Shown: positions 2 to 21,352, numbered from the stretch's first letter. The stretch: 35,143 nucleotides of DNA from an uncultured Enterobacterales bacterium (GCA_964532635.1 CAZHIK010000003.1:1-35143); one strand, 5' to 3'. Notes: generated by a model from the sequence alone, not told the origin. Translations and numbers: made by a program.

Positions 2-397
2 GACGACGACTTCGTCTTCGAGCTGGACGACGACGAGATCGTGGCCGTCCAGGGCCTCAGCACCGAGGGCTGGCAGTACTACGAGGGCTGGTGCGAGCAC
101 GTCATCCACTACTACTACGACGACGGCGCCAACTACGACTACGCCTTCGGCTTCATGTTCTTCGACGGCACCGAGACCCCCTACGCCTCCTCGTCCTACA
201 GCCCCTACAGCATCACGGTCACCCAGGACGGCTGCTCGGGCAACGGCGGCGAGGGTGGCGACCCTGCGGACGCCACCATCTTCTACATCGAGTCGGTGCT
301 GGTGCCAGTGGCCAACGTCCAGTGCCGCGACTGCGGCGACACCTTCCCCGAGTACTTCGGCTCCCCGCTGACGGACAACAGCGCCTGGCTGCGGTGA
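2..397 (+). CDS. 3' end of a hypothetical Tyr/Asp/Cys-rich protein (5' end is off the left edge)
   Basis: Frame 2 is open from the window edge (DDDFVFELDDDEIVAVQGL...) to TGA 395-397, with strong GC3 codon bias. The listed ORF 41-397 is only its internal GTG-to-stop part. No domain recognised. The stop overlaps the next start (GTGA at 394-397). Confidence 0.6.
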   Translation, partial: DDDFVFELDDDEIVAVQGLSTEGWQYYEGWCEHVIHYYYDDGANYDYAFGFMFFDGTETPYASSSYSPYSITVTQDGCSGNGGEGGDPADATIFYIESVLVPVANVQCRDCGDTFPEYFGSPLTDNSAWLR

Positions 398-1092
398 CGA
401 AGGCGATCTCCCCCGGTCGCCGAGCCGCCGTCCCCGCCGGTGCACTGCTGGCGCTGGGCCTGTACATGGCCGCCCTGCCCTGGCTCGCTTCCCTGGGGGA
501 GTGGGCCCTGCTCACCCTGCCCAGCCTGTGGCTGCTGGGCTGGACGGCGCTGCTGTGGCGGCTCGGGCGGCCTTGGGATCTGATGCTGAGCCGAGGGGGG
601 CGTCGCGCGGGCTGGATGCTGGGCGCCACCGCCGCAGCCGCCGTCGCTGTGCTGGCCTTCGCCCTGCTCTGGCCACAGGGCCTGGGCGAGGCCAGCCTGG
701 ACCGCACGCTCCGCGGCCTGGCCCTGCAGGCCCTGGTGCCCGTGGCCGAGGAGCTCTTCTTTCGCGGCGTGCTGCTGGCCGACCTGCGCCGTCGCTGGGG
801 CCCGGTGGGGGCCACGCTGCTGGTCACAGCCATCTTCGCCGCCATGCACGCCCCCATGGGTCAGCAGTGGCCCATGGCGGTCCTGTCCCTGCTGCTGTGC
901 GGTGTCACCATTACCAGTGGCTCCGTGCTGTGGGCCATCGGCATGCACGTGGCCTGGAACTCCATGGCGGTCCTCAAGCTGCTGCCGCCGGGAGGCGCGC
1001 GGACTCCAGCGCTGGTGGTGGCCCTGCTGCTGCTGGTAGCCATCGCGGCCTGGGGCTACGCTCGCCGGGAGTCGAGCGAGAGGCCCCCATGA
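394..1092 (+). CDS. CPBP family intramembrane glutamic endopeptidase (CAAX protease / Abi-like)
   Basis: This is the 3' two-thirds of ORF 91-1092. GTG 394 overlaps the upstream stop. The protein is multi-pass hydrophobic and carries the three CPBP motifs: EELFFRG (EExxxR), FAAMH (FxxxH) and HVAWN (HxxxN). Confidence 0.8.
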   Translation: MTKAISPGRRAAVPAGALLALGLYMAALPWLASLGEWALLTLPSLWLLGWTALLWRLGRPWDLMLSRGGRRAGWMLGATAAAAVAVLAFALLWPQGLGEASLDRTLRGLALQALVPVAEELFFRGVLLADLRRRWGPVGATLLVTAIFAAMHAPMGQQWPMAVLSLLLCGVTITSGSVLWAIGMHVAWNSMAVLKLLPPGGARTPALVVALLLLVAIAAWGYARRESSERPP

Positions 1093-2504
1093 GCGAACCC
1101 GTCGGTCGCCGCACCGTGCTGAACGCCGCGGCCCCCGATCTGCGCCAGCGGCGGGGCGATGCCTGGCTGCTGGTCTGGGGCGAGCTGGCCCAGTGGCTGG
1201 CGGTGGACGACGACCTGCTGGCTTTCCTGGAGCGCTTCGACGGCCGCAGCGATGTCCGCCGAGTGCTGCGCAGACACGCCAAAGCCCAACGGCGCTCCCT
1301 GGCGGAGGTGGAGGCCGAGGCACAGCCCGTGATCCGCGACCTGATGGAGCGCGGCATCCTGCGCCGCGACACCACGCCCGCGGGCACGAACGCAGAGCAC
1401 CTGTCCATCGCCAACCTCACCCTCAACCTCACCAACCGCTGCAACCTGCGCTGCGCCCACTGCTACAACCGCGACCACCACAGCGAAGACGCCCCCATCG
1501 AGGCCATCGTGGCCGGCATCCAGGCCTCGAAGAGAGTCCTGGATCCAGACGCCTCCCTGGTGGTGCTGGGGGGTGAGCCGACCCTGCAGCCGGAGCGCCT
1601 GCTCGCCCTGCTGGACGGCTGCGCCGGGTTGTTCGGGCAGCGGCCCGTGCTCTCCACGAACGGCACGCTCATCACCCCGGAGCTGGCTGGAGAGCTGGCG
1701 GAGCGCGGTGTCGAGGTGCAGGTGAGCCTGGACCACCACCAGCCAGCAGCGCACGATCGCGTCCGGGGAGCCGGCAGCTACCCGGCGGCCCTGGAGGGGC
1801 TCCGAGCGCTGCGGGAGGTCGGGGCCTACACCATCCTCTGCCGGGTCTACGCCCGGGGGGACGAGTCGCAGCTCGAGCCCTACCTCGACCTGGCCGCGTC
1901 GCTGGGGGTGGACGAGGTGCGCTTCATCCCCCTGCGAGGGGTGGGCATGGGCGCCCTGGATCCCGGCCGGCTGCCCGATCAGCTGGCGGCCATGCGTGCC
2001 CTGGTGGCGCTGCTGCGACGGCGCCCGGAGCTGGCGGGGCTGCTGGCCAGGGACTGGTTCTCCATCGCCGCCACACTGCTGGGCCGAGGAAGAGGCCGCA
2101 CCAGCTGCGGCATCGGCCGCCGGGTAGTGCTGGTGGACGCCGACGGCCGGGTCTACCCCTGCCCCAACCACACCGACCCGGAGCACGCAGCCGGCAGCCT
2201 GCTGGAGCAGGACCTGAGCAGGATCCTGGTGGGCTCCCCTGTCTTCCAGCGACTTCGCCAGCGCTACCACAGCGCCCGCTACACCCGCTGTCGCAGCTGC
2301 CCCTTCCGCGGCTGGTGTGCGGGGGACTGCCGTGGCGAGGTGCTGGCGCTGACCGGCGACCCCACGGCCCCTTCGCCCCACTGCACACAGCTGCGGGCGG
2401 TCTACACCGAGCTGCTCTGGCTCACCGCCACCGGACGCCTGCCCTTCGGTGAGCGGGCCACGCTGGCGGACGGGCGGGCGCTGCCACCGGAACCGTTCAT
2501 GTAG
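1089..2504 (+). CDS. Radical SAM/SPASM peptide-modifying enzyme with N-terminal PqqD-like RiPP recognition element
   Basis: ATG 1089 overlaps the CPBP stop (ATGA). The motif CNLRCAHC is the Cx3Cx2C radical SAM cluster. The C-terminal CRSCPFRGWCAGDC is the canonical Cx2Cx5Cx3C SPASM motif, preceded by a DADGRVYPC twitch-like element. The first ~95 aa (WLAVDDDLLAFLERFDGRSDVRRVLRRHA...VIRDLMERGIL) look like a PqqD-type winged-helix domain. The listed ORF 501-2504 carries a spurious Arg/Pro/Ala-rich N-terminal extension. Confidence 0.9.
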   Translation: MSEPVGRRTVLNAAAPDLRQRRGDAWLLVWGELAQWLAVDDDLLAFLERFDGRSDVRRVLRRHAKAQRRSLAEVEAEAQPVIRDLMERGILRRDTTPAGTNAEHLSIANLTLNLTNRCNLRCAHCYNRDHHSEDAPIEAIVAGIQASKRVLDPDASLVVLGGEPTLQPERLLALLDGCAGLFGQRPVLSTNGTLITPELAGELAERGVEVQVSLDHHQPAAHDRVRGAGSYPAALEGLRALREVGAYTILCRVYARGDESQLEPYLDLAASLGVDEVRFIPLRGVGMGALDPGRLPDQLAAMRALVALLRRRPELAGLLARDWFSIAATLLGRGRGRTSCGIGRRVVLVDADGRVYPCPNHTDPEHAAGSLLEQDLSRILVGSPVFQRLRQRYHSARYTRCRSCPFRGWCAGDCRGEVLALTGDPTAPSPHCTQLRAVYTELLWLTATGRLPFGERATLADGRALPPEPFM

Positions 2505-2576: not shown

Positions 2577-3848
2577 ATGCTGGACTACTCCGATCCGCCG
2601 ACCACCAGTCTCATGGTGCACGCGATGACTCCGGTCAACCGCCTGATCGTCCTGCCCATCCTGTTGAAGACCAAGGTCGATATCCCCCGCGAGGAGCGCG
2701 CTCGCTTTCAGCGCTACGTCAACCGTGACACCGCGGCCTTCCTCTCCCCGACCCATCCGATGTTCATGATCGACTGGATGGTCGACAAGGAGGTCTGCTC
2801 GCAGATCTCGCCACGCATGGCCCACTGGGGCGATGCCGCCGTGGTCAACGCGAACAAGCTCGGCAAGTGGTTCTGGACCCACAACGGCCTGATCGCCACC
2901 AACGGCCGGGCGCTGGCCGAGGACTTCTCCATCCGGTGGGCCTCCCAGGGCCACGGCGTGCTGCTACACCCCGAGGGGATCGCGCGCTGGACCGCCAGCC
3001 GAGTCCACGAGATCTTCCAGGGCATCGCGCGCATGCCCATCAACACCGCCAAGGCGCTGGCCGAGCGCAGCAGCGATCGGCCGGTCTGGATCGTGCCATT
3101 CGTGAGCCGGCTCCGGTTCCGCCGAGATGTCTCCTCCGGGTTGCAGGACGAGATGGCGCTCATCGAGCAGCGCCTCGAACTGCCCGATGGTGAGGGGCTG
3201 GCGGTCGCCGATCGCTTCGCGTCCCTACAGGTGAACCTTTCCAGGAAGCGCCATGAACTGCTCGAGTACACCCCACCCGAGCCCCTCACCCCGGCGAGCT
3301 TCTTCCGCTGCAGCGAGGCCTGCTCCACGGCACTACTCGCGCGGCTCGAGGCCCAGAGCGGGCCCATGGAAGGCAGCCTCTCCCAGCAGATCAACCGCCA
3401 CGAGCGGGCGCTGAAGCAGGCACAGAAGAGCGGCGCCACCGGGCTCGAGCCCCTCCGCACCGCTGTGTACGAGCTGCGCCGGATCTACACCACGAGCCCG
3501 GATCTCTACGGCGGCCCCGAGCTGACCCAGGAGCAGATCGCGGAGAGCCTCAAGCGCATCCTGAGGGAGATCGTCGACAACAGGCTGGTCGAGACGCGCA
3601 CGGGCAAGGACGTGTTTCGCAAGGTGATGCCGAGGCCGGTGGGTCGTTCCGTCATCCACGTGCGCCTGGCGGACCCCGTCCGAGTGGACGAAGCTGTCCG
3701 CGCAGGCGAAGACGAGGCCGAGCTCACCGACAAGCTGCTGACAGAGACCCACGCCTCCATGCAGCGACGGGTCGATGAGCTGAAGCGCGAGGTGGCCGGC
3801 CAGGGGAGCGGTCCGGTCCACCCCAATCCGCTCGAAGTGTCAGCCTGA
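2577..3848 (+). CDS. Putative acyltransferase (PlsC/LPLAT-like core) with a long charged helical C-terminal extension
   Basis: GAGGGGG lies upstream of ATG 2577, and composition and GC3 are normal. THPMFMID (an HX4D-like block, here H-x5-D) and LLHPEGIARWT (an FPEGTR-like block) are about 70 residues apart, as in glycerolipid acyltransferases. The C-terminal ~220 aa have no recognisable domain. The CDS is well supported; the function is tentative. Confidence 0.45.
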   Translation: MLDYSDPPTTSLMVHAMTPVNRLIVLPILLKTKVDIPREERARFQRYVNRDTAAFLSPTHPMFMIDWMVDKEVCSQISPRMAHWGDAAVVNANKLGKWFWTHNGLIATNGRALAEDFSIRWASQGHGVLLHPEGIARWTASRVHEIFQGIARMPINTAKALAERSSDRPVWIVPFVSRLRFRRDVSSGLQDEMALIEQRLELPDGEGLAVADRFASLQVNLSRKRHELLEYTPPEPLTPASFFRCSEACSTALLARLEAQSGPMEGSLSQQINRHERALKQAQKSGATGLEPLRTAVYELRRIYTTSPDLYGGPELTQEQIAESLKRILREIVDNRLVETRTGKDVFRKVMPRPVGRSVIHVRLADPVRVDEAVRAGEDEAELTDKLLTETHASMQRRVDELKREVAGQGSGPVHPNPLEVSA

Positions 3849-3986
3849 CACTCACCGACATGATGCAACTCGGCGCCAAAACACGCAGGAGCGCACCCGC
3901 AGCGATGCGGCCGAGAGCCCAACAGAGACACGCTCCTCGATTGTTGGCTTGATTTGCTGACTAATGGAGGAGTAGGGTCGAATGCG

Positions 3987-6900
3987 ATGCTACGCATGCG
4001 CGCCCTTGTTGCTCTCATCCTGTGCTCTACCGCCTGCGATCGACATCAGCATCCGCGCCGATCTGGCGCTCCAGACTGCGCTGAAGGCTGGCACAGCGAC
4101 GGAGACAGCTGCGTCCCCGAGTCCTGCGGGAAGGGAACCTGGGGAGAGCTGCTGGTCGACGAAGACACCATCTACGTCCAGTCCGACGCGGCCGAGGGCG
4201 GGGATGGCAGCGCGGAGGACCCGCACCGGAGCATCCAAGCCGCGCTGGACCTGGCAGGCAGCCGCGGAGGAGGGCTCGTGGCCGTAGCTGCGGGGACCTA
4301 TCCGGAGACCCTCGAGCTGGGACAGGACCACGCGGGGGTGCACCTGGCTGGCCGATGCCGGGACCTGGTGACGTTGGATGCGAGTGTGGGAGACGAGGAG
4401 AGCAACGGCATCGGCATCGATGGGCTGAACATCGAGGTCGAGGTAACAGGGCTGAGCGTCGAGGGTGCGCGATACGTCGGCGTGCGGGTGCTATCAGGCA
4501 TCGTGGGACTGGGAGAAATGCGCATCATCGGCAGCGGCTATGCCGGAGTGGGCGCAGCCTCATCCAGCTCGCTCAGCCCGACAGAGTTGTTGGTACGGGA
4601 CGTGGAGCTGGCAGGGAGCGAAGTCGGCCTCCTGGCCTACGACCCGAACACCGCGATCGTCCTACGTGAAACCACAATCCGCGACACCGCACCTGACGAG
4701 AGCGGTCAAGGTGGGATCGGCATCTACCTGGCCGATGGCGCCGATCTCCTAGCCGAAGGTTGCACCGTGGCGAGGAGCAGGATGGCAGGCATCGTCGCCA
4801 CCGACGACGGCACAAGACTCACCCTCCGTGACTCGACCATCTCGGACACACAACCCGACGGGCGCGGGCAGTGGGGTATCGGCCTGATCGTGACCGAAGG
4901 AGCAGCGCTCCATGCCGAGGGCTGTGAGCTCACCAGGAACACTACGGCCGGTATCCAAGTCATCGAGCCCGGCAGCGAGGCCACGCTCGAATGCTGCGTC
5001 GTGAGTGACACCCATCCCGATGAAAGTGGGCAATACGGCGCAGGCATCTCTGTCGTAGAGGCCTCGTTCTCTGCTGTTGACTGCGAGGTCTCGAGAAACA
5101 CGACTGCGGGACTGCTGTCCGAGGATGCCGGCACCGAGGTCACGCTGTACGGAACCGACCTCAACGACACGCACCCGGACGAGAGAGGGCTGGGAGGTTC
5201 AGGCATACAGGTTCACACGGGCTCGACGCTGAGAGCGACGAACTGCCGGCTGCACGGCAACTCCAGTGTGGGGATCTCGAGCATAAGTGAAGACACACGG
5301 GTCGAGCTGAGCGGTTGTCGTGTGCACAACGGAATGCCCGACGGACTCGGCGACCACGGATACGGCATCTGTGCAGAAGCAGGCTGCTACGTCGTCGCCA
5401 ACGACTGCGAATCGATCGGGAACATCAGGGCGGGCCTGCTGGTCGATGGCAAAGGCACCCAAGTGGTCCTGCAGGACTCCACCATCCATGGGACACTGCC
5501 GGGCGGAGAAGAACACGGAGGGTGGGGCCTACAAGTCCACGATGAGGCTTCGCTCCACGTCGTCGGATGCGAGGTCGCGCAGAACACAGCCGTCGGGATC
5601 GGCGCAGACGACTTTGGGACCGAGGTCACCGTCACCGACACCGCGGTCCGGAACACTCTACACCTGTCGGAGACAAGTGGCGGCGTTGGAATCCAGGCTG
5701 GCCTGGGCGCCAGTGTCACCATCGAACACAGCTTGGTGGAGAGCAACACCGCTCTCGGGATCTGGACCGTTCAATCGGGTTCGCGCATCGCGATACTGGA
5801 CTCCGTCGTCAGAGGCACGCGACCTGGGGGTGGCACACGCTGCGGGATCGGCGTCGCCGCCACGCAGGGTGCCAGCCTCGTGGTGGAGCGCAGCGAAGTG
5901 ATAGACAACGTTGGGGCTGGGTTCTTCTTCAGCGATGAGGGTACTGTGGCCCTGGTCCGCGACACCATCATCCGAGACCAACTCCCCTCCAGCGACGGTG
6001 GTTTGGGGTACGGAGTCACCGTGAATACCGCCGCACGTCTCGAGCTCGAGCGCTGTGTGCTGGAGGGGAACACCAATGTTGGAATCATGGCCGCCACAGT
6101 CGGCACCGCGGTCGACATCAGTGACACCATCATCTCCGGGACCATCGCCGGCTACGGGGAACGATCGAATATGGCACTCGGAATCAGTGCTTCCGATGGT
6201 GCCACGATTGGCGCTCGACGGCTGACGCTTTCCGACAACGCAGGTCCAGCCCTGCACGCCATCGATCCCGAGACACGGCTCATCTGCACCGATTGCCAGC
6301 TCTCGAACCACCAATTCGCGAGCGCTATCGTCGTCGACGACGGCTCCCTCGAACTGCTCTCCTCCACCATCTCGGGCAGTCTCGAGAGCGTGAACGCTGG
6401 CGGAGGTGTCGGCGTGTACGCAGCCTCGCAAGAAGCCTGGGCCGCTCCCACTCTCGTCGCGACCGACTGCGACTTCTCCGACTACACCGTTGCTGGCGTC
6501 TTCGTCGCAGGCAACGGCGGCTATCTGCTCGAAGGCAACAGCTTCACCGGAGGGGTTGGGGTTCCACACGGAGGCGGACTCCGCTGCGGTGATGGCGTCT
6601 ACGCCAGGGAGGTCAACTCCTGGGACGGACAAACCGGGCTACTCCTTGACGGAAACGTCATCTCCGACAACGTTGGTGCAGGTCTCTTCCTGGACGACGC
6701 CTGGGTGTCCCTCCAGGACAACGCATGGGAACGGAACGAGCCCGACCTGCTGTCCCAAGGGGACGCCTGCCACTCGCCCGGCGATGACTTTTCGGGGGTC
6801 CCCGTGGTCGAACTCTGTCCCCAATGGGATCGACCCACCTGCGATGTCGCGTTTCGCCTGAACCTGCGGGCTGCTGATCCAGCACAGCACGGGCTCGAGC

Positions 6901-7052
6901 CACCCAGCGCCCCCGCCACGGTACCAAATCCACTTGTCTGGGACCTGCCCAGCAGGCTCACCAGACCATCGTCGCCGCATCTTCCACTCATCGAGACACC
7001 CCGATTTCCGATGGACGAGGTACGTCCGCGTGTGGGTGACCTCGATCGATAG
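3987..7052 (+). CDS. Large right-handed parallel beta-helix repeat lipoprotein
   Basis: GGAGGAG (3967-3973) precedes ATG 3987. The signal peptide MLRMRALVALILCSTAC has a lipobox-like Cys. The N-terminal Cys-rich stretch (CAEGWHSDGDSCVPESCGKG) is followed by GDGSAEDPHRSIQAALDLAG...GTYPETLEL, typical of PbH1/pectate-lyase-fold proteins, and then by at least 10 tandem ~54-aa units. An alternative start exists at 3954. Confidence 0.8.
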   Translation: MLRMRALVALILCSTACDRHQHPRRSGAPDCAEGWHSDGDSCVPESCGKGTWGELLVDEDTIYVQSDAAEGGDGSAEDPHRSIQAALDLAGSRGGGLVAVAAGTYPETLELGQDHAGVHLAGRCRDLVTLDASVGDEESNGIGIDGLNIEVEVTGLSVEGARYVGVRVLSGIVGLGEMRIIGSGYAGVGAASSSSLSPTELLVRDVELAGSEVGLLAYDPNTAIVLRETTIRDTAPDESGQGGIGIYLADGADLLAEGCTVARSRMAGIVATDDGTRLTLRDSTISDTQPDGRGQWGIGLIVTEGAALHAEGCELTRNTTAGIQVIEPGSEATLECCVVSDTHPDESGQYGAGISVVEASFSAVDCEVSRNTTAGLLSEDAGTEVTLYGTDLNDTHPDERGLGGSGIQVHTGSTLRATNCRLHGNSSVGISSISEDTRVELSGCRVHNGMPDGLGDHGYGICAEAGCYVVANDCESIGNIRAGLLVDGKGTQVVLQDSTIHGTLPGGEEHGGWGLQVHDEASLHVVGCEVAQNTAVGIGADDFGTEVTVTDTAVRNTLHLSETSGGVGIQAGLGASVTIEHSLVESNTALGIWTVQSGSRIAILDSVVRGTRPGGGTRCGIGVAATQGASLVVERSEVIDNVGAGFFFSDEGTVALVRDTIIRDQLPSSDGGLGYGVTVNTAARLELERCVLEGNTNVGIMAATVGTAVDISDTIISGTIAGYGERSNMALGISASDGATIGARRLTLSDNAGPALHAIDPETRLICTDCQLSNHQFASAIVVDDGSLELLSSTISGSLESVNAGGGVGVYAASQEAWAAPTLVATDCDFSDYTVAGVFVAGNGGYLLEGNSFTGGVGVPHGGGLRCGDGVYAREVNSWDGQTGLLLDGNVISDNVGAGLFLDDAWVSLQDNAWERNEPDLLSQGDACHSPGDDFSGVPVVELCPQWDRPTCDVAFRLNLRAADPAQHGLEPPSAPATVPNPLVWDLPSRLTRPSSPHLPLIETPRFPMDEVRPRVGDLDR
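4674..6296 (+). repeat. Protein-level tandem array of at least 10 units of ~54 aa (about 162 nt) inside the beta-helix gene
   Basis: Hand alignment gives units that begin T(I/V)xDT.PD..G..G.GI and continue ...G(A/S)xL.A..C.(V/L).(R/Q)NT.AGI....G(T/S).(V/A)TL. Examples are TIRDTAPDESGQGGIGIY..., TISDTQPDGRGQWGIGLI..., VVSDTHPDESGQYGAGIS... and DLNDTHPDERGLGGSGIQ.... Unit lengths counted are 54, 54, 53 and 54 aa. The DNA copies have diverged and are not identical. Confidence 0.7.
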
Positions 7053-7070: not shown

Positions 7071-8249
7071 TTGCTCTCCACCCTCCTCTCCCTCGCCCTC
7101 GGCTGCTCCCCCGGCGAAGCGCCGCCAGACTGTGAGCCCATCAGCTGCGACAGCGCGAACGATGACAGCGCCGTGGAGGACAGCGACGAGCCCAACCCAG
7201 ACATCGTCCAGGAAGCCAGGGGTCTGTGGCTGTGGCCCGAGTGGGGCAACGACCCGCACGAGGGCCCGGCGGCCATCGAACAGGAGGTCTCGCGCCTGCT
7301 GGAAATAGGCTTCAACCTCTTCATTCCCTTGGTGGAAAACCACTCCGCCTACTACCCCTCGGAGCAGGTCTCGCTCTACGAGGGCTGGGACGCCTACGAC
7401 TACCCTCGCGCCTTCATCGACGCGGTGCAGACCCACGACAGCGAGGGCCGCGCCGAGGTGCACCTGTGGACCGCGGTCTTCCACCAGAGCGATCTGCTCG
7501 AGGAGCACCCCGAGTTCGCCACGGTCCACCAGGACGGTACCCCCGACAGCGGCATGGCCTGCCCCACCCACCCCGAGGTCCGGCAGCGCGCCCTGGCCGT
7601 GGTGGAGGAGCTGTGGGACCGCTACCCCGAGGGCGTGGTCCACCTGGACTACGTGCGCCACCCCGAGGACGGCTGCTACTGCGAGACCTGCCGGGCGGCC
7701 TACGAGGGCGAGTACGGGGAGGACCCGCACGAGCTGGATCCCATGGACGAGACCTGGGTGGCCTGGCGCGCCGAGCGCGTCACCACCTTCGTGCGGGAGG
7801 TGCGGACCGCGGCCCAGACCCGCGATCCCGAGCCCAGGATCTCCGCCGCGGTCTTCGCGGTACCAGGCCCCACCGAGGCGCTGAGCCTGGTGAGTCAGGA
7901 CTGGCGGGCCTGGCTGGACGAGGGCCTGATCGACCTGGCCATGCCCATGCTGTACAGCGACAAACACAGCGACTTCGTGAGCAGCTGCCAGGCCTGCTTG
8001 GGCGCGGTACCTCCCGATCACCACCAGTACGTGGGCATTGGCCTGTGGACCTTCGCCGAGCAGGATCAGCCCGAGGAAGCGCTCACCCAGATCGAGCTGG
8101 CTCGGGCCCTGGGGGCCGAGGGTCACGTCCTCTTTCGCGCCGCCTACCTCGACGACGACACCGCGGTGCTGCTCGAGGAGCTGTACGCCCAGCCCGCTGT
8201 GCTCCCCCACCGGGAGGACCACGAGCCAGCTATGATGGTCCTACCATGA
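7071..8249 (+). CDS. Lipoprotein, glycosyl-hydrolase-like family 10 (GHL10/DUF187, YngK-like)
   Basis: TTG 7071 is the only possible start after the in-frame TAG 7050-7052, and GAGG lies 9 nt upstream. The lipobox is LSLALGC. A TIM-barrel-like pattern includes VVHLDYVRHPEDG, which resembles the GHL10 signature HlDyiRyP. Confidence 0.6.
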   Translation: MLSTLLSLALGCSPGEAPPDCEPISCDSANDDSAVEDSDEPNPDIVQEARGLWLWPEWGNDPHEGPAAIEQEVSRLLEIGFNLFIPLVENHSAYYPSEQVSLYEGWDAYDYPRAFIDAVQTHDSEGRAEVHLWTAVFHQSDLLEEHPEFATVHQDGTPDSGMACPTHPEVRQRALAVVEELWDRYPEGVVHLDYVRHPEDGCYCETCRAAYEGEYGEDPHELDPMDETWVAWRAERVTTFVREVRTAAQTRDPEPRISAAVFAVPGPTEALSLVSQDWRAWLDEGLIDLAMPMLYSDKHSDFVSSCQACLGAVPPDHHQYVGIGLWTFAEQDQPEEALTQIELARALGAEGHVLFRAAYLDDDTAVLLEELYAQPAVLPHREDHEPAMMVLP

Positions 8250-11838: not shown

Positions 11839-13449
11839 TCACGCTCCAGGGAGTGGGACGCTGTCAGGCCCCAGCCCGCAGCTGGGAAGGATGAAGGTGA
11901 AGGTGGCCCCCTCACCAACGCGTCCCTCGGCATGCACCCGGCCGCCGTGGCGGAGGATGGCGCGATGGACGGTGGCGAGCCCGATGCCGTTGCCGGGGAA
12001 CTCGGTCACCCCGTGCAAGCGCTGGAAGGGTCCGAAGAGCTTGCCGACGTAGCTCATGTCGAAGCCCGCGCCGTTGTCGCTGACGGATACCGCCAGCTCG
12101 CCGTTCGCGACCCGGCCGCCCACGCGGATGCGAGCCACGGGGCGCTGCCCGGTGAACTTCCAGGCGTTGTCGAGCAGGTTCTGCATCGCGACCCGCAGCA
12201 GGGCGCTGTCACCGGCGACCGCGATCTCGGGATCCACGTGGATCTCCGCCTTCCGCTGGGGATCGCGCTCCAGCAGCTCGCCGAGGATCGACTCCGCCAT
12301 GCCCGACAGGTCCACCCGCGACTGCTCGAAGCTCCGCCGGGTGAGGCGGGACAGCCTCAACAGATCGTCGATCAGCCACCCCATGCGCTGGCTCGCACCG
12401 CAGAGCCGCTCGAGGTACTCCCGCCCGTCTTCGTCCAGTCGCCCACCGTAGTCCTCGAGCACCGCCCGGCTGAACCCGTCGATGGCCCGCAGGGGGGCGC
12501 GGAGGTCGTGTGAGACCGAGTAGGCGAAGGCCTCGAGCTCCTTGTTGGCCGCCTGCAGTGCCACTGTACGGCGCTCGACCCGCGCCTCGAGGCCGCGATT
12601 CAGCTCCCGCACCTCCTGCTCCGCCAAGCGCTGCTCAGTGATGTCCCGCGCCACGAAGACGATGGCCCGCCGCCCCTCCACCGGCTCATCCAGCGGCGCG
12701 CTGAGACCCTCGAAGTGGTGAACACCGTCGGGCAGCTCCAGCGCGTACTCGATGCGCTGGGTGGCCCCGCTGTCGATGGTGGTCCGGATCAGGCCCATGA
12801 AGCGCTCCGCCAGCGCGGGTGCGAAGATGTCCTGCAGGCGTGGGTCCCGAACTTCCTCCTTGGGCCGCACCAACAGCTCGTCTTCACCCGTCAGGACCTC
12901 TCGATAGCGGCCGTCCGCGTCCACCAGGAAGACCAGATCCGGCAAGGCGCCGAAGATGGCCCGCAGGCGGGCCTCGCTCTGTTGCAGCGCCAAGCGGGTG
13001 TGAAGGTGATGGGCCACCTCTTCCTGCAGCTGCTGCGTGCGGGCGTCCGCCAACTCCTCGAGGCCCACGGCCTCTTCTTTCTCCCTCGTGATGTCCGAAA
13101 ACACCGTGACGAAGGCGTCCAGACGAGGCGAGAACACCGAGATGCGGAAGTGCTTGGCCATGGGACGGAAGTGGACCTCGAAGCGGTCCGGCTCACCGGT
13201 CATGGCCACCCGAGCGTAGCGCTCCAGGTAGGGCGCAGCGTGGGTACCGTAGACCTCGGTAGCGGTTCGACCCAGCACCGCGTCGCGCTCGAGCCCGACG
13301 ATTCCGACATAGGCGTCGTTGACGTCCAGGATGCGGTAGTCGACCACGACCCCGGCATCATCGTGCACCAACTCGTGCACGGCACAACCTTCGGTCATGG
13401 TCCGGAACAGGCCCTGGTACAGCGCCGCGTCGTGGGTGGGAGAGCTCAT
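11839..13449 (-). CDS. Soluble PAS-PAS sensor histidine kinase
   Basis: The start is MSSPTHDAALYQGLF (ATG 13449, ATGA overlap with the upstream stop). It has two PAS-like modules, the H-box FAYSVSHDLRAPL, and HATPase boxes NLLDNAWKF, DNGAGF and GNGIGLA. There is no hydrophobic segment. Confidence 0.85.
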   Translation of the reverse strand: MSSPTHDAALYQGLFRTMTEGCAVHELVHDDAGVVVDYRILDVNDAYVGIVGLERDAVLGRTATEVYGTHAAPYLERYARVAMTGEPDRFEVHFRPMAKHFRISVFSPRLDAFVTVFSDITREKEEAVGLEELADARTQQLQEEVAHHLHTRLALQQSEARLRAIFGALPDLVFLVDADGRYREVLTGEDELLVRPKEEVRDPRLQDIFAPALAERFMGLIRTTIDSGATQRIEYALELPDGVHHFEGLSAPLDEPVEGRRAIVFVARDITEQRLAEQEVRELNRGLEARVERRTVALQAANKELEAFAYSVSHDLRAPLRAIDGFSRAVLEDYGGRLDEDGREYLERLCGASQRMGWLIDDLLRLSRLTRRSFEQSRVDLSGMAESILGELLERDPQRKAEIHVDPEIAVAGDSALLRVAMQNLLDNAWKFTGQRPVARIRVGGRVANGELAVSVSDNGAGFDMSYVGKLFGPFQRLHGVTEFPGNGIGLATVHRAILRHGGRVHAEGRVGEGATFTFILPSCGLGPDSVPLPGA

Positions 13450-14597
13450 CGCCCGTCGTCCTCGTAGATGGTGGTGAAGCTGGATGCGCTGTCCCTGCCG
13501 CCGCAGGACGTCTCCGTGACGATGGCCTCGAAGGCGGGCCGATGCTGCAGGAACAGCGCCACGAGCCCCGGATCGAACTGCCGACCGGCCTGGGAACGAA
13601 TCTCCTCGACCGCGCGCGCGACGGGCCAAGCCGACTTGTAGGGACGCTCCGAGCACAGCGCATCGAACACATCCACCAGCGCGCAGATCCGGCCGGCCAG
13701 AGGGATGAGCTCCCCCGTCAGGCCGCTGGGGTAGCCCGCGCCGTCCCAGCGCTCGTGGTGGGTCAAGGCGATGGTGCGCGCCAGCACGAGCAGTCGGGAC
13801 TCGTCCCCGGAGAGCAACTCAGCCCCCACGGAGGTGTGGGTCTGCATCACGGCCCGCTCCCTTTCGCTCAGCGGGCCCGGCTTGCGCAGGATGGCGTCGG
13901 GCACACCGATCTTGCCCACGTCGTGCATGGGCAGTGCTGCCTCCAGGCGGGAGCACTCCCGCGCGTCGAGCCCCACCAGGCTCCCCAGCAGCGCCCCCAT
14001 GCGGGCGACGCGGAGGATGTGCTCCCCGGTCTCCTCGTCGCGGAACTCCGCAGCCCGACCCAGCCGTCGAATGAGCTGCTGACGGCTCCGAGTCAGCTCT
14101 CGCGTGCGCTCCCGCACCGCCTGTTCGAGCCGCTCGTTGTGGCTCACCAGATCATGCTCCAGCAGGCTCATCTCCACCAGGTTGCGGATGCGGGCCACGG
14201 CCTCGGCACCGTCGAAGGGCTTGGTCAGGAAGTCTCGCGCTCCCGCCCGCAGGGCCCGCAGCCGGGTCTCGCGGTCCCGCAGCGAGGTGAGCACCAGCAC
14301 GGGCAGGGGTCCTCGGGGCACCTGTTCCCGCAGCGCCTCCATGAGCTCGAAGCCGCTCATTCCCGGCATGCAGAGGTCGGTGAGCACCAGGGCCGGCTGC
14401 ACCTGGCGGAACAGCACTGGGACCTCCCTGGGATCGGTGGTGGTGCGCAGGCCGGTGAAGCCTGCCGCGCGGAGGGTGCGCTCGAGGCCTCGGAGGTTGT
14501 GGATCTCATCGTCCACAGCGAGCAGATCCGCGCCGAGGATGCGGTCTGCAGAGGGCCCGGCCGGGCGCACCTGGATGCGCGGACGGCGAGGGCTCAC
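13446..14597 (-). CDS. Response regulator with HD-GYP domain (predicted c-di-GMP phosphodiesterase)
   Basis: The receiver has LLAVDDE, LVLTDLCMPGMSG and LTKPF. The HD-GYP domain has ALPMHDVGKIGVPD and HHERWDGAGYPSGL. GTG 14597 overlaps the upstream stop (GTGA). Confidence 0.9.
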   Translation of the reverse strand: MSPRRPRIQVRPAGPSADRILGADLLAVDDEIHNLRGLERTLRAAGFTGLRTTTDPREVPVLFRQVQPALVLTDLCMPGMSGFELMEALREQVPRGPLPVLVLTSLRDRETRLRALRAGARDFLTKPFDGAEAVARIRNLVEMSLLEHDLVSHNERLEQAVRERTRELTRSRQQLIRRLGRAAEFRDEETGEHILRVARMGALLGSLVGLDARECSRLEAALPMHDVGKIGVPDAILRKPGPLSERERAVMQTHTSVGAELLSGDESRLLVLARTIALTHHERWDGAGYPSGLTGELIPLAGRICALVDVFDALCSERPYKSAWPVARAVEEIRSQAGRQFDPGLVALFLQHRPAFEAIVTETSCGGRDSASSFTTIYEDDGR

Positions 14598-15739
14598 CTC
14601 GCCTCCTCGGGGGCCGCCGCCGGGAGGCTCACCGTGAAGACAGTACCGCAGCCCTCGCGGCTCTTCACGGACACCAGGCCCCCGTGGGCCTCAACGATCT
14701 GACGCACCACCGGCAGGCCCAGGCCCGTGCCCTTGTCAGCGGACTTGGTGGTGAAGTAGGGCTCGAAGACCCGCTTCTGGAGCTCCTCGGGGATGCCGGG
14801 GCCCGTGTCCTCCACCGACAGGTGCACCCGCTCGCCGTGGATCCAGGTGCGCACGTAGATGCGCTTGTCGCCGTTGGCGCTTTCCCCCATCGCGTCCACG
14901 GCGTTGTTCACCAGGTTGAACAGCACCTGCTCGATCTCATGGGGGCGCACCCGCACCGGCGCAGGCAGGAAGCAGAAGTCAGGCAGCACCCGCACATACT
15001 TGGTACGGCCGGTCTCCCCGAGCAGGGACAGCACCCGACCGACGAGGTCCCGCAGATCATGCACGCCCTGGGCCTGCTTGCTGGGACGCCCCAGCTCGAG
15101 CAGGTTGCGACCGTGGTTCTCGAGATGACCGAGCACCCAGTCCAACTCCCGGATGTCCTCGGCGGTCGCCAGCTCCTCGAACTCGACCTTGTCCGCGAGC
15201 ACCCCCACCTGGAGCCGGAGCACGTGGCACAGGTTGTTCAGCTCGTGGCCCACACCCCCCGCGAGGATGCCCAGGGTGGTCAGCCGCTCGGCGTGCAGCA
15301 GCTGGGAAGTGAGCCGCTCCACCTCCCGATGGAGCAGGTGCTGATCGGCGGTGATGCGGCGGTACTGCACCAGGGCGGACTCCACCGCTGCGATCACCTC
15401 CCGGGTGGGACAGGGCTTTTCGAGGAAACGAAACACGTGGCCGCGATTCACGGCGGCGATGGCGGAGCCCAGATCGGCGTTACCGGTGAGCAGGATGCGT
15501 ACCGAGTTTTCCTGGCGCAGGCGCACCTCAGCCAGGAAGCTCACGCCGTCCATGCCAGGCATACGGAGATCGGACACCACCACCGGAAACGGCCCGTGGC
15601 GCTCCAGCTCGATCAAGCCCTGGGCGGCGGACTCGGCGGTGATGACCTGGTAGGCACCCCGCAGGTTGACCCGGATCCCCGCCAGGAACGCTGGCTCGTC
15701 GTCCACGAAGAGCACCTTGGGAAGCGGAGTGTCAGGCAT
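14594..15739 (-). CDS. Hybrid REC-histidine kinase with no sensor domain
   Basis: The receiver has KVLFVDDEP and VVVSDLRMPGMDG. The H-box is AGGVGHELNNL. HATPase boxes are NLVNNAVDA, EDTGPGI and DKGTGLGL. The ATG at 15739-15737 overlaps the upstream gene by 8 nt. Confidence 0.85.
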   Translation of the reverse strand: MPDTPLPKVLFVDDEPAFLAGIRVNLRGAYQVITAESAAQGLIELERHGPFPVVVSDLRMPGMDGVSFLAEVRLRQENSVRILLTGNADLGSAIAAVNRGHVFRFLEKPCPTREVIAAVESALVQYRRITADQHLLHREVERLTSQLLHAERLTTLGILAGGVGHELNNLCHVLRLQVGVLADKVEFEELATAEDIRELDWVLGHLENHGRNLLELGRPSKQAQGVHDLRDLVGRVLSLLGETGRTKYVRVLPDFCFLPAPVRVRPHEIEQVLFNLVNNAVDAMGESANGDKRIYVRTWIHGERVHLSVEDTGPGIPEELQKRVFEPYFTTKSADKGTGLGLPVVRQIVEAHGGLVSVKSREGCGTVFTVSLPAAAPEEAR

Positions 15740-18356
15740 GGTTCCTTCCTTGGACGCGCTGGGCCGCGTCCTGGGGCAGCAGCACCACGAAGCGGGCCCC
15801 CCCCCCTTCGGCTTCCTCGCAGTGGATGCTGCCCCCGTGCCGGTCCACCACGATGGCGTAGGCGATGGCCAGCCCCTGCCCCGTGCCCTTGCCCGGAGCC
15901 TTGGTGGTGAAGAAGGGCTCGAAGAGCCGGCTGCGCAGCGCCTCGGGAACCCCAGGACCGCTGTCCGAGACCGTCAGCTCCACCATGTCTCCCCTTCGTC
16001 GGGTCCGGACCACGATCCTGCCCAGGCACGGGCCGCGGTTCGGGGCGTTCTCCACGGCCTGCGCCGCGTTCACGAGCAGGTTCAGCAACACCTGGCCCAG
16101 GTCGCTGGCGAAGCAACGGATCGGTGGCAGCTCACCCAGATCTGTCGCCACGTCGGCCACGTACTTGTACTCGTTGCGCGACACCACCAGGGCATCGCGC
16201 ACCAGCTGGTTCAGGTCAGCGGGGGCCGGCTTCTCGCCGCTGGGGTGGGACAGCTTGCGCATGGAGCGCACGATGGCCCGCACCCGGTCCAGACCCTGCT
16301 GGGCTCGCTCGAAGGCCCGCGGGATCTCCTCCAGCAGAAACTCCGGATCGAAGACCCCATCGTCGATCCGGGAGCGCTGGATCATGGGGTCCGTGCGCTC
16401 CTCCTCGTCCACCTCGGCCCCGAAGACGTGGTCGAAGGCCCCGCGCTGCAGGGATCGCTGGTAGGCGCTCTGCACGAAGTGCAGCGAGTCGCCCAGGTAC
16501 TGCAGCGGGGTGTTGATCTCGTGGGCGATGCCCGAGGACAGCCGCCCCAGGGAGTCCATCTTCTGGGCGTGGCGCAGCTCGACCTCGAGGCGCCGCAGCT
16601 CGCTCAGATCCTGGAACACCATCTGCACCACGGCCCGCTCGTCGATGGCGGTCACGGTGGCGGTGACCCGGACCGGCACGCGCCGGTGGGGTGAAGGTTC
16701 GAGGATCCCCTCGAACACGATGGGCTCCCCCGCCCCGATGAACTGGGACCAGCGCTGGGCGAACAGCGCCTGCTCCGACTTCGGACGAAGCTCCGCAGCG
16801 TGCCGACCCACGATCCACTCGCGGCTGCGCTCGAACAGGCGCTCTGCAGCCTGGTTGCAGCGCAACATCACCCCGCTGGCGGCGTCCGCCCAGACGATGG
16901 CGTCCCGGCTGGTCTCGAAGATCAGCCGGAACAGCTCCTCGCTGCGGGCAAGCTCCTCCCGGCCGATGAACTGCGCCACAGCCAGCGCCACGTGCTGAGC
17001 CACCCGCTCCAGCACCTGAACGCGGCGGGGGGTGAAGCGACCGCGGCGGCTGTCGTTGAACTGAAGCAGGCCCAGGGTCCGCTCGCCGTGGCGCAGCGGG
17101 ATCAGGGCCACCGACTCGTAGCCCTGGGCGTTGCAGGTGTTGCGCGTGGGCCCGCCCAGCTCCTCCTCGGTGGCCGTGGCCAACAGCTCCGTGGTGCAGT
17201 TGGTGTAGAAGCTGCCGCCCCCGGTGAAGCAGGGCTGCGACGGATCGGTGCGACCCTGCAGCACATTGCCGCACATGCAAGCGAGCAGAGGTGCTCCGCA
17301 CTCATCGCGCAGGATCCCTCCACCCTGGGCGTAGGTGCAGAGGTTGCGCTCGGCATCCACGAACGCAGCCGGGAAGTCCCGGGTCTCGTAGTATGGAAAG
17401 TCCTCCCCCAGGGTCAGGCGGACGGCCACGGCCTCGCAGCCGCACCAGGCCTGGAGCCGCTCGAGCAGGCCGCGCATGGCCTCACTCCGGTCGGTGGCTC
17501 GGTTCAGCAGCTCGCTGACCTCGATGACGAGCCGCTGCTCGTCGCTCATGGCCTTCAGCTCGGTGACATCGCGCACGGCGACCACGACCTGGTGGGGCCG
17601 GCCCCCGAGGTCCTTGAGGGGGGAAAAAACCACGTCCGCCCAGGCCGGATCGCCCCCATCGCGCTCGTAGCGGTACAGCCCCTGGTGAGGCGCGCCCTCT
17701 TCGAGCACCGTCGCCACCGTGCAGCCGTGCTCGGGATCGCACTCGGCGCCGAAGAAGCTCGAGATCACGCTGCAGTGGCTCCCGACCAGCTCACCAGGGC
17801 CGCCCCCCAGGGTGGCCTCGAAGCGCTGGTTGGCGTCCACTACCCGGCAATCGGAGCCCACCACCGCCAGGCCGTCCTGCAGCTGCCGCAACAGGCCTCG
17901 GTAGTAGCGCTCGCGCTCCGCGACAGCGCGGCGGGCCTCCAGCAGCTCTCTCTCCCGCTGGAGCCGCTCCATCGCGCGCTTCACCGTGAGCGGCAAGAAA
18001 TCCAGGAAGCCGTCGTCCTTGATGAGGTAGTCCCAGGCTCCCAGCTTCATCAGCTCCACCGCCACGCGCTCGTCCCCGTGGCCGGTCATGATGACGAAGG
18101 GGTGCTCCCGGCCCGCCTCTCTCAGCTCGCGTACCAGCCGCAGGGCGTTCATGTCGGGCAGCTGGAAGTCCAGCAGCAGCAGGGCAGGCTCTTCGAGCCC
18201 GAGGGCCCGACCGATCGCCTCAGCGCCGGTATCCACACCGCGGGCGTCGAAGCCCTCCCGCCGCAGCGCCCTGAGGATCAGGCGGCACAGGCCGGGATCG
18301 TCCTCGGCCACCAGGACGATGGGATCGGGGGCGATGCGGGCGGAGGCGTCGGCCAT
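15732..18356 (-). CDS. Hybrid sensor kinase, REC-PAS-GAF(Cys-rich)-PAS-HisKA-HATPase
   Basis: The receiver has IVLVAEDDP and LLLLDFQLPDMN. It is followed by a PAS, a GAF-like segment with 9 Cys, and a second PAS. The H-box is SSGIAHEINTPL. HATPase boxes are NLLVNAAQA, DSGPGV and GKGTGQGL. There is no TM segment. Confidence 0.85.
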   Translation of the reverse strand: MADASARIAPDPIVLVAEDDPGLCRLILRALRREGFDARGVDTGAEAIGRALGLEEPALLLLDFQLPDMNALRLVRELREAGREHPFVIMTGHGDERVAVELMKLGAWDYLIKDDGFLDFLPLTVKRAMERLQRERELLEARRAVAERERYYRGLLRQLQDGLAVVGSDCRVVDANQRFEATLGGGPGELVGSHCSVISSFFGAECDPEHGCTVATVLEEGAPHQGLYRYERDGGDPAWADVVFSPLKDLGGRPHQVVVAVRDVTELKAMSDEQRLVIEVSELLNRATDRSEAMRGLLERLQAWCGCEAVAVRLTLGEDFPYYETRDFPAAFVDAERNLCTYAQGGGILRDECGAPLLACMCGNVLQGRTDPSQPCFTGGGSFYTNCTTELLATATEEELGGPTRNTCNAQGYESVALIPLRHGERTLGLLQFNDSRRGRFTPRRVQVLERVAQHVALAVAQFIGREELARSEELFRLIFETSRDAIVWADAASGVMLRCNQAAERLFERSREWIVGRHAAELRPKSEQALFAQRWSQFIGAGEPIVFEGILEPSPHRRVPVRVTATVTAIDERAVVQMVFQDLSELRRLEVELRHAQKMDSLGRLSSGIAHEINTPLQYLGDSLHFVQSAYQRSLQRGAFDHVFGAEVDEEERTDPMIQRSRIDDGVFDPEFLLEEIPRAFERAQQGLDRVRAIVRSMRKLSHPSGEKPAPADLNQLVRDALVVSRNEYKYVADVATDLGELPPIRCFASDLGQVLLNLLVNAAQAVENAPNRGPCLGRIVVRTRRRGDMVELTVSDSGPGVPEALRSRLFEPFFTTKAPGKGTGQGLAIAYAIVVDRHGGSIHCEEAEGGGARFVVLLPQDAAQRVQGRNHA

Positions 18357-18361
18357 GGAGA

Positions 18362-18835
18362 TCAGGCCTGCAGCTCGGGGACCCGGATGACGGACAGGAA
18401 CAGGCCCAGCTGGCGCACCACGTCGATGAAGTGGTCGTACTCCACGGGCTTGGTGATGTAGTTGGAGCAGCCGATGCTGTGGCAGTTCTCGATCTCACGC
18501 GGATCGTCGGTGGTGGTGAGCATCAGCACGGGCATCTTGCGCAGCTCGTCGTCGCGCTTGATCCGCCGCAGCACCTCCACGCCGTCCACCCGCGGCATGC
18601 GGATGTCCAGCAGCAGCAGGTAGGCCCGACCGGGGACTCGGTGGTCGCCGTCACCGGCATCGAACAGGAAGTCCAGGGCCTCCTGGCCGTCGGCGAAGCG
18701 GCGGATGGGATTGGCGATGCCGGCGCGCTTCAGGTTGCGCTGGATGAGGCGAGCGTGCCCGTCGTCGTCCTCGGCCACGAGGATCTCGACGGCGTGGCTG
18801 CGGTCGCCGCTGCCGTTGTAGGGATAGACAGTCAT
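18362..18835 (-). CDS. Single-domain response regulator (CheY-like receiver)
   Basis: Receiver motifs are EILVAEDDDG, LLLLDIRMPRVDG and NYITKPV. ATG 18835 overlaps the upstream stop (ATGA). Confidence 0.85.
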   Translation of the reverse strand: MTVYPYNGSGDRSHAVEILVAEDDDGHARLIQRNLKRAGIANPIRRFADGQEALDFLFDAGDGDHRVPGRAYLLLLDIRMPRVDGVEVLRRIKRDDELRKMPVLMLTTTDDPREIENCHSIGCSNYITKPVEYDHFIDVVRQLGLFLSVIRVPELQA

Positions 18836-21219: not shown

Positions 21220-21330
21220 GAGGCCTCCTCGCCTACCAGCATCAGCGGGCCCCGCTTCAGGCGCATGTCGTCAAGGCGCTGATCCTGGTGTAGGCGATGG
21301 GAGTTCGCCCCTCGTCCCGCGCTGACGGCC

Positions 21331-21350
21331 GTGTAGGCCCAGGCCTACAC
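21331..21350 (-). terminator. GC-rich hairpin 2 nt downstream of the NarL-type regulator stop; possible intrinsic terminator or RNA stabiliser
   Basis: GTGTAGGC-CCAG-GCCTACAC forms a perfect 8-bp stem with a 4-nt loop (one further G-C pair could extend it to 9 bp). No U-tract follows on the minus strand, so termination activity is uncertain. Confidence 0.35.
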
Positions 21351-21352
21351 CA

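Follow-up and report, generated by a model that had tools for sequence, protein, structure and literature searches.

A CPBP protease and radical SAM/SPASM gene pair and its recurrent partner, an unannotated family of membrane proteins

We analysed a stretch of DNA of 35,143 nt (~69% G+C; hereafter the window) from an uncultured Enterobacterales bacterium (GCA_964532635.1, CAZHIK010000003.1:1-35143), which begins with three open reading frames (ORFs) in tandem on one strand (Table 1). The first base of the window falls within the first of them, which we call ORF1. The second encodes a CPBP glutamic intramembrane protease, and the third encodes a radical S-adenosylmethionine (SAM) enzyme with a SPASM domain and a predicted N-terminal recognition element (RRE) of the kind found in pathways that make ribosomally synthesized, post-translationally modified peptides (RiPPs). 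The stop codon of ORF1 (TGA, 395-397) shares bases with the GTG start codon of the CPBP gene (394-396), and the stop codon of the latter (TGA, 1090-1092) shares bases with the ATG of the radical SAM gene (1089-1091). An earlier reading made from the sequence alone (hereafter the sequence-only reading) had described these GTGA and ATGA overlaps, the CPBP protease with its EExxxR, FxxxH and HxxxN motifs, and the CNLRCAHC and canonical SPASM CX2CX5CX3C motifs of the third ORF, all of which stand. It had also considered the three genes as one system. The comparison of related loci leads to a different definition: the conserved core is the CPBP-radical SAM pair plus a family of proteins that we called type A, whose genes lie outside the window, and ORF1 is a lineage-specific passenger gene.

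Table 1. Position and basis of the features of the three genes found at the start of the window
Feature	Position	Strand	Basis or remark
ORF1, 3' end only, 5'-truncated	2..397	+	131 codons; predicted C-terminal part of the COLFI/fibrinogen-like domain of a MopE-repeat lipoprotein
CPBP (Rce1-like) glutamic intramembrane protease, 232 aa, GTG start	394..1092	+	PF02517
CPBP motif 1, EELFFR (EExxxR)	748..765	+	Read from the sequence
CPBP motif 2, FAAMH (FxxxH)	835..849	+	Read from the sequence
CPBP motif 3, HVAWN (HxxxN)	946..960	+	Read from the sequence
Radical SAM/SPASM enzyme with N-terminal RRE-like domain, 471 aa, ATG start	1089..2504	+	Pfam, NCBIfam, AlphaFold, Foldseek
Predicted PqqD-like RRE (winged-helix) domain, residues ~1-100	1089..1388	+	Predicted structure, profile match to 5SXY, PqqD matches of homologues
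CX3CX2C motif CNLRCAHC, residues 118-125	1440..1463	+	C118, C122 and C125 invariant in 24 homologues
SPASM domain, residues 340-432	2106..2384	+	PF13186, TIGR04085; seven invariant Cys
SPASM motif CRSCPFRGWCAGDC, residues 401-414	2289-2330	+	Read from the sequence

The third ORF scores above the cut-offs of the Radical SAM superfamily (PF04055; E = 5e-19, 69.6 bits for a cut-off of 29.5), of the SPASM domain (PF13186; E = 7e-9, 36.3 bits for a cut-off of 21.5) and of the SPASM subfamily model TIGR04085 (50.5 bits for a cut-off of 27). In an alignment of 24 members (A1), the seven SPASM cysteines (C340, C358, C401, C404, C410, C414 and C432) are invariant. We checked the enzyme against curated NCBIfam equivalog models, including those of MftC, PqqE, QhpD, anSME, StsB, PapB, CbpB, ScmE/F, NirJ, AhbC/D, DynA and WgkB. 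None of the cut-offs was reached: the best score was for MftC (124.9 vs 265), with GeoRSP at 112 (vs 400), StsB at 111 (vs 625), QhpD at 85 (vs 453), PqqE at 76 (vs 381) and anSME at 57 (vs 349). Thus, the enzyme lies outside every characterised family, as had been supposed from the sequence. More than 355 homologues were found, in Polyangiaceae, Myxococcota, 'Deltaproteobacteria', Pirellulales and Hydrogenedentota metagenome-assembled genomes (MAGs), and the source records say only 'radical SAM protein'. Both enzymes of the pair belong to an unnamed family of Myxococcota-like, Hydrogenedentota and Pirellulales MAGs.

The N-terminal ~100 residues of the radical SAM enzymes are well conserved (LLVWGxLAQWxVVDxEL...FDGR...RGIL). 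The Pfam PqqD model (PF05402) is matched by 7 of the 22 family members searched (best E = 7e-5), and a profile of the domain run against PDB sequences retrieved PqqD (5SXY) first (E = 0.0076, residues 37-90 vs 40-93). In the AlphaFold model of the enzyme (mean predicted local distance difference test score, pLDDT, of 91.3; predicted template modelling score of 0.89), residues 11-90 have pLDDT values of 92-96 and form strands 18-22, 25-30 and 35-39 followed by helices 41-48, 56-66 and 71-87. A three-stranded sheet and three helices thus precede the radical SAM barrel, the winged-helix arrangement of CteB and SuiB. Foldseek searches placed CteB (5WHY, E = 6e-18), TigE (8VPO) and SuiB (5V1T) at ranks 1-4 and 10, interspersed with anSME, and the alignments with CteB, TigE and SuiB cover 451, 485 and 465 columns, respectively, compared with ~375 for the RRE-less anSME. 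On these structural grounds, we accept the predicted N-terminal domain as a PqqD-like RRE. The sequence-only reading had proposed a PqqD-like extension of ~95 residues; the fold speaks for it, and in sequence the domain profile and some homologues match PqqD, whereas the window protein itself does not match the Pfam model even at E <= 1. Altogether, the data support the identification of the third ORF as an RRE-bearing radical SAM/SPASM enzyme of the peptide-maturase type.

The CPBP protein harbours the three motifs of its family and scores above the PF02517 cut-off (E = 8e-18, 64.9 bits for a cut-off of 22.4). Its matches to the NCBIfam myxosortase models are partial, and none of them reaches its cut-off (MrtJ, 44 bits vs 75; MrtS, 32 vs 130; Mrt_core, 23 vs 100). 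We compared the window with ~20 distinct loci (numbered with the prefix L) whose radical SAM enzymes are 37-74% identical to that of the window, and we mapped them with hidden Markov models (HMMs) built here for the radical SAM, CPBP and type A proteins. A metagenome scan based on the radical SAM alignment used degenerate patterns that proved too generic, and true family members were found only in L011-L017 among its 80 loci. According to the HMM map, a CPBP gene is located directly 5' of the radical SAM gene, on the same strand, in 14 distinct loci, and the gene ends overlap in several of them. The CPBP gene is missing from four distinct loci (L009, L013, L015 and L016).

No conserved small ORF that might code for a short leader-plus-core precursor was found in the window or in the ~20 related loci. 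The genes of the module overlap or abut, and only 72 nt are available 3' of the radical SAM gene in the window, leaving no space for a small precursor gene. The sequence-only reading had likewise seen no short precursor there.

The partner that recurs with the radical SAM genes is type A, an unannotated family devoid of significant Pfam or NCBIfam matches, whose members are described in the source records only as 'hypothetical protein'. The type A gene is followed by the CPBP and radical SAM genes in L003, L005, L008, L092/93, L095/96, L099 and L102/103, and in L094 a MopE-COLFI gene lies between it and that pair. In L011, L012 and L014, a type A-like gene comes after the CPBP and radical SAM genes, and it follows the radical SAM gene in three loci devoid of CPBP genes (L013, L015 and L016). 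L009 also lacks the CPBP gene, and its type A and radical SAM genes are separated by a non-coding gap of 620 nt. There are one to four type A genes in tandem, with four copies in L014 and three in L015. Because type A genes remain linked in loci without a CPBP gene, the association between the radical SAM enzyme and type A is wider than that between the radical SAM enzyme and the protease. When 1.84 billion representative proteins were searched with a profile, 431 type A relatives (representative clusters) were retrieved, including 134 at E <= 1e-30. The proteins are 330-400 residues long, and 90-260 residues long in distant clades.

Type A proteins start with an N-terminal tail of fixed length, M-[KRQ]-I-[LIF]-A-x-S-x7-[FY]-L-H-x-G-Y-x-S-A, so that, with few exceptions among full-length members, residue 17 is a His, and residue 20 is a Tyr. 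In an alignment of 22 members, the invariant N-terminal residues are M1, L16, H17, G19, Y20, S22, P25 and R26. Behind the tail, a linker that varies leads to the conserved segment LxLDMxxALxLQGE. Next come two hydrophobic helices, with a short loop rich in K/R between them, and a C-terminal domain of ~200 residues with YGxDGW and SAGxDG...DD motifs. When ~250 kb of loci was searched with a regular expression for the tail motif, it was found once per type A gene, at the N-terminus, and nowhere else. Among 185 proteins of the family, 153 have the motif, which starts exactly at residue 15 in 139 of them; the non-matching proteins are nearly all N-terminally truncated fragments. The tails of the most distant paralogues read MRIEHQGTIETQPVYQHVGYVSA... 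(L014), MKIIAQSEVPVRPSYLHIAYVAA... (L016) and MQLIAHSVIPSNPVPYMHLGYISA... (L015). The His17/Tyr20 register is thus kept in L014 and L016, whose radical SAM enzymes are only 37-38% identical to that of the window, and it is shifted by one residue in L015.

The tandem type A-like paralogues of L014 (8328-11045, four genes) and L015 (8355-9992, three genes) are all found 3' of the radical SAM gene, and each begins with M-x-I-x-x-x-(S/G)...Y-x-H-x-G-Y. One of the L015 copies, 103 residues long, lacks a globular domain and consists of the tail and membrane helices only. In L008, a 291-aa ORF (3111-3986) located 5' of the type A gene weakly matches the Radical_SAM model from profile position 28. The CX3CX2C region is apparently absent from this ORF, which may be a truncated or degenerate second radical SAM gene.

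In the type A model made with AlphaFold (pLDDT 80), confidence is low for the tail (residues 1-21); residues 39-44 form a strand, with a pLDDT of 96 across residues 41-50, and residues 76-121 a helical hairpin. The high confidence of the strand suggests to us that it is packed against the C-terminal domain. In most sequences, two to four K/R residues and no D/E are found in the loop that joins the two helices, and both flanks are acidic. By the positive-inside rule, the tail and the domain are both predicted to be extracytoplasmic. We considered that type A proteins might be pseudopilins, given one weak, motif-level match to the type II secretion pseudopilin G family (PF08334; E = 1e-3, 19.2 bits for a cut-off of 21), and rejected this idea: the match is below threshold, the N-terminus does not resemble G-FTLIE, and no significant PDB fold match was obtained.

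Two other characteristics of the type A family were noted. In alignments A2 and A3, a nearly invariant Cys is present at about residue 123 of protein P0121, where the second hydrophobic helix ends, after the K/R-rich loop. This region resembles an internal lipoprotein signal peptide and weakly matches NF058595, a 'lipo-invert putative C-terminal anchoring domain' (E = 0.2); the Cys is missing in L003, in L008 and in the distant clade. In addition, those type A genes that are not immediately next to a CPBP-radical SAM pair are found near sulfatase-maturation genes, namely two FGE-sulfatase genes in L097 (2460-4132) and L100 (4370-6036), and a sulfatase gene and a separate gene for a 414-aa radical SAM/SPASM protein in L098 (1163-2407 and 5870-7813). 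This proximity may be a coincidence.

The position of the type A gene in the genome of the window can be predicted from synteny. In L097 and L100/L101, the type A gene is followed, with one gene between in L097, by a MopE-repeat lipoprotein gene cut by the end of the contig. The window, L001 and L091 start within the same kind of MopE lipoprotein gene, and L094 holds both halves joined. The window evidently starts inside ORF1 because MopE repeats break assemblies, and we infer from this gene order that its type A gene would be at least 3.5 kb upstream of position 1.

We propose that the complete module reads type A gene, MopE/COLFI lipoprotein gene (in this sub-clade), CPBP gene and RRE-radical SAM/SPASM gene, the window representing its right-hand end. 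On balance, we think it probable that the radical SAM enzyme modifies the N-terminal tail of type A and that the CPBP protein processes this tail. In the cytoplasm, the RRE of the enzyme would bind the extreme N-terminus of type A (residues ~1-9, β-prone), and the radical SAM/SPASM core would introduce a modification at the aromatic cluster (F/Y)15-x-H17-x-G19-Y20-x-(S/A)22. As to the chemistry, our best guess is a cross-link within the molecule (C-C, C-N or C-O) that joins an aromatic side chain, of His or Tyr, to a neighbouring residue; alternatively, the tail may be epimerised or hydroxylated. Since there is no conserved Cys in the tail, a thioether is unlikely. An anSME-like conversion of the Ser to formylglycine was also considered and is unlikely, as S-A-Y-P-R is out of register with C/S-x-P-x-R and Ser is replaced by Ala in several distant paralogues. 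The hairpin would then insert in the membrane, with the tail and the domain outside. Finally, the CPBP protein, frequent but dispensable, would clip the tail near the first helix or serve as an accessory processing factor. This is the weakest step of the proposed pathway, and an immunity-like role for CPBP could be envisaged instead.

Several observations weigh against modification of the type A tail by this enzyme. No type A gene or motif was found in the 35-kb window, L006/L007 have the CPBP-radical SAM pair and no type A gene within 13 kb, and the type A gene of L098 has no module in its vicinity. A membrane protein of 330-400 residues is an atypical substrate for a radical SAM enzyme with an RRE, and the comparison of the type A model with the PDB gave no significant fold match. 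The Ser of the motif is replaced by Ala in some distant paralogues. If the tail is periplasmic, i.e. the topology is N-out, its modification must precede membrane insertion; the substrates of anSME and QhpD are modified before membrane passage. Lastly, the modification of the tail, its interaction with the enzyme and its cleavage are read from gene linkage and motifs, and the chemistry is guessed.

A bolder version of the same scheme is that of an undescribed system in which a hairpin membrane protein carries its own N-terminal RiPP-like recognition and core sequences, is cross-linked in the cytoplasm and is exported by translocation of its N-terminal tail. The product would either stay as a modified extracytoplasmic tail or be clipped by CPBP and released as a secreted modified peptide. 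We regard this version as tentative and somewhat doubtful. If true, it would define a class of 'self-exporting' precursors in Myxococcota, Hydrogenedentota and Planctomycetota.

Alternatively, the substrate might be encoded elsewhere, as an unlinked short peptide or as other exported proteins. Type A would then be a co-located scaffold, exporter or receptor, and CPBP would be a leader protease or an immunity protein, a role that CPBP/Abi proteins have in bacteriocin loci. The genes can indeed occur apart, since no type A gene adjoins the pair in L006/7 and the module is missing around the type A gene of L098, and many precursors of RiPPs are unlinked, or so small that gene calling misses them. 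However, none of the loci that we read contains a conserved small ORF, and the association between the radical SAM enzyme and type A is both the tightest and the widest, persisting in the loci without CPBP (L009, L013, L015 and L016). Moreover, tandem paralogues and an invariant tail in fixed register are hallmarks expected of a recognition or core sequence. Thus, we consider an unlinked substrate unlikely.

We also find it quite improbable that the third ORF is a SPASM enzyme acting on a cofactor or a small molecule, in the manner of NirJ/AhbD or of the PQQ and mycofactocin pathways, with a generic winged helix at its N-terminus. Its best NCBIfam scores do include MftC, NirJ2, AhbD and PqqE, all below threshold, and the window protein has no Pfam PqqD match. 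Nevertheless, those scores are two- to eightfold under the cut-offs, and the pathway partners (pqqA-D, mftA/B/D and nir/ahb) are absent from the window and from every locus. In addition, the structural alignments of full length are with peptide maturases that bear an RRE, and the profile of the N-terminal domain matches PqqD specifically.

The sequence-only reading had noted that ORF1 is truncated and of unusual composition. This composition was confirmed (D 12%, G 11%, Y 9%), and homologues explain it. ORF1 shares 87% identity with the final part of the L001 ORF and roughly 80%, by an estimate made by eye and not computed, with a complete homologue of 1,268 residues in L094. The latter carries a signal of the lipoprotein type (MRRLAPLALFLALAAC...), 15 copies of the MopE 'putative metal-binding' repeat (PF11617, 7e-127) and a fibrinogen-like YCDxxxxGGGW domain (NF040941 GGGWT_bact, 5e-16; Fibrinogen_C PF00147, 8e-5), and its tail matches that of ORF1 residue for residue (VQCRDCGD[TA]FPE[YK]FGSPLTDN[SP]AWLR). 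Its last 229 residues match FIBCD1 in the PDB (4M7F, 8e-7) and, over residues 32-212, the C-propeptide of procollagen III (4AE2, 1e-4). A word-based search returned only eight homologues of ORF1. The close homologues P0306, P0308 and P0310 carry a precomputed PF01410 (COLFI) assignment, and P0306 also carries PF00147. Fibrinogen-related/COLFI membership is thus found for the full-length homologues, whose domains are like the bacterial GGGWT/COLFI domains of MopE-repeat surface proteins, whereas the window fragment alone, i.e. the distal 131 residues, has no Pfam or NCBIfam match. From homology, ORF1 is predicted to be the C-terminal part of the COLFI/fibrinogen-like domain at the end of a MopE-repeat lipoprotein of ~1,200 residues. 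Its odd composition is that of the distal part of an ordinary extracytoplasmic lectin/collagen-propeptide-like fold, and its Cys residues are most simply seen as disulfide-forming. It ends with ...DNSAWLR, with neither a C-terminal membrane helix nor a sorting tag.

The distribution of ORF1-type genes argues against the three-gene arrangement as a system. The sequence-only reading had made conservation of that arrangement its own test, and the outcome is negative: an ORF1-type gene adjoins the CPBP-radical SAM pair only in the window, L001, L091 and L094. It is absent from L095/L096, L102/L103 and L006/L007, whose radical SAM enzymes are 63-72% identical to that of the window, and from every locus with a more distant enzyme (<60% identical). 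Even in the close clade of the window (63-74% identity), in which the radical SAM tree is star-like, its presence is patchy. In L092 and L093, the MopE/COLFI gene has been cut to an ORF of 58 codons, and the CPBP and radical SAM genes are intact. This remnant (6145-6321 in L092, the same in L093) fuses the signal peptide and the first repeat to the last residues, ...DNAISAWLR, and its 4-nt overlap with the start of the CPBP gene persists. Among the junctions compared, only those of the window and of the L092 remnant are of the GTGA type. In L002, the 250 nt located 5' of the CPBP gene contain no ORF1 homologue and harbour a 45-bp palindromic tandem repeat instead.

ORF1, or its C-terminal ~60 residues rich in Cys, Asp and aromatic residues, which the sequence-only reading took as the substrate, is therefore a very improbable substrate for thioether or C-C cross-linking by the radical SAM enzyme and processing by CPBP: it does adjoin the CPBP gene with a 4-nt overlap, it has counterparts 5' of the module in L001, L091 and L094, and the L092 remnant retains the final ...SAWLR, but it belongs to an extracytoplasmic domain of a large lipoprotein with a standard signal peptide, it has no homology to the other upstream proteins, its overlap with the CPBP gene is not conserved, and, as its synteny is not conserved either, the gene being deleted or absent where the CPBP-radical SAM pair persists, the proposal is largely refuted.

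Other elements occupy the region upstream of the pair in related loci. The L002 array, at the end of the contig (1-235), consists of approximately five tandem copies of a 45-bp unit (...ATCTCCCCTCTCCCCGCCGGGGAGAGGGTGAACAGGAACACCTTC...) with an internal palindrome, directly 5' of the CPBP gene, at the site where other relatives have ORF1 or type A. In the clade of the window only, lipoproteins of 311-317 residues are encoded between a divergent TauE gene and the type A, CPBP and radical SAM genes, as pairs of paralogues (L006, 3340-5278; L095, 1880-3811; L102, 7027-8921; L092, 1-1461). Tyr, Asp, Trp and Gly are abundant in these lipoproteins, which have a motif with four Cys at their end (e.g. 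...CEVTITVGGDSCTMVCVGYGTYDC) and match no family. We rejected them as core partners, since they are confined to this clade and never found in distant loci. BLASTP of ORF1 against the two 317-aa lipoproteins of L006 yielded only compositional matches (E >= 0.35), and a relationship between them was discarded.

Compared with known systems, the module works like an RRE-dependent radical SAM/SPASM RiPP maturase system, yet it falls outside every named family. CteB, SuiB, TigE, PqqE with PqqD and MftC with MftB have the same order of RRE, CX3CX2C barrel and SPASM domain with seven Cys residues. They likely share the same logic, in which positions ~10-20 residues downstream of an N-terminal recognition sequence bound by the RRE are modified by the core. 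However, their substrates are free peptides of 20-70 residues, whereas the candidate substrate here is the N-terminal tail of a two-helix membrane protein; the partner protease is a CPBP protein, dispensable in some loci, and no equivalog cut-off is reached. Similarly, canonical RiPP clusters encode a short precursor beside the maturase, and the conserved partner here is a membrane protein of 90-400 residues. Sactipeptide and ranthipeptide systems need Cys residues in the core, unlike the tail of the candidate substrate (M..S..FLHxGYxSA), which has no conserved Cys.

In anSME with the sulfatases and QhpD with QhpC of quinohemoprotein amine dehydrogenase, as proposed here, a cytoplasmic SPASM enzyme acts on a protein that is exported later. 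The core of the radical SAM enzyme is a strong structural match to anSME (4K39; TM-score of 0.74, normalised to the target). Nonetheless, anSME is devoid of an RRE, the type A tail does not contain the sulfatase motif (C/S)-x-(P/A)-x-R, its S-A-Y-P-R being one residue off register, and the module contains no qhp or sulfatase genes. The myxosortases MrtX, MrtJ and MrtS are also CPBP glutamic intramembrane proteases of Myxococcota-like genomes, and in both their targets and the putative type A target a signature motif is followed by a membrane helix and then by a basic cluster. In contrast with the Cys-containing C-terminal sorting tag of myxosortase targets, the type A motif is N-terminal and without an invariant Cys, and the myxosortase cut-offs are not reached. 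The preprint on myxosortases says nothing of a radical SAM partner. In the library searched, we found no publication combining a radical SAM enzyme with a CPBP or CAAX protease in a RiPP context, nor, in a search on Myxococcota and SPASM proteins, one on this system. The novelty lies in a candidate substrate of a new class, namely the N-terminal tail of a membrane protein with a helical hairpin, and in the pairing of the maturase with a CPBP protein.

RRE-bearing radical SAM/SPASM enzymes are a main source of new peptide chemistry, and uncharacterised SPASM families are numerous. To our knowledge, nearly all known enzymes of this type act on small, free precursor peptides. With >355 radical SAM homologues and 431 representative clusters of the partner, the family described here is at least several hundred strong. 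Should the type A tail be the substrate, it would represent a new substrate class, probably with a new cross-link centred on the invariant His-x-Gly-Tyr, and a RiPP-like modification embedded in a protein. It would also provide a functional handle on an abundant, unannotated family of poorly studied Myxococcota-like lineages. The tail with its fixed-register His-x-Gly-Tyr makes the hypothesis directly testable. The locus also calls for caution in annotation, as translational coupling to the nearest upstream ORF failed to identify the substrate.

Downstream of the radical SAM gene, the region 2577-7052 precedes a GHL10-like gene (7071-8249) and codes for a 423-aa protein and a 1,032-aa right-handed beta-helix/NosD-like protein, the gene of the latter lying in a stretch of lower GC content (0.63-0.66 vs ~0.70). 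This region looks like a local insertion because in L094 the GHL10 gene comes directly after the radical SAM gene. The 423-aa ORF (2577-3848) was considered as a part of the module and rejected, having no Pfam or NCBIfam match and no homologue in any related locus. Further along the window, on the minus strand (11839-24771), are four large genes for multi-PAS/GAF histidine kinases of 659-929 residues, one with a receiver domain and one with a HisKA_3 domain, with smaller ORFs on the same strand between them.

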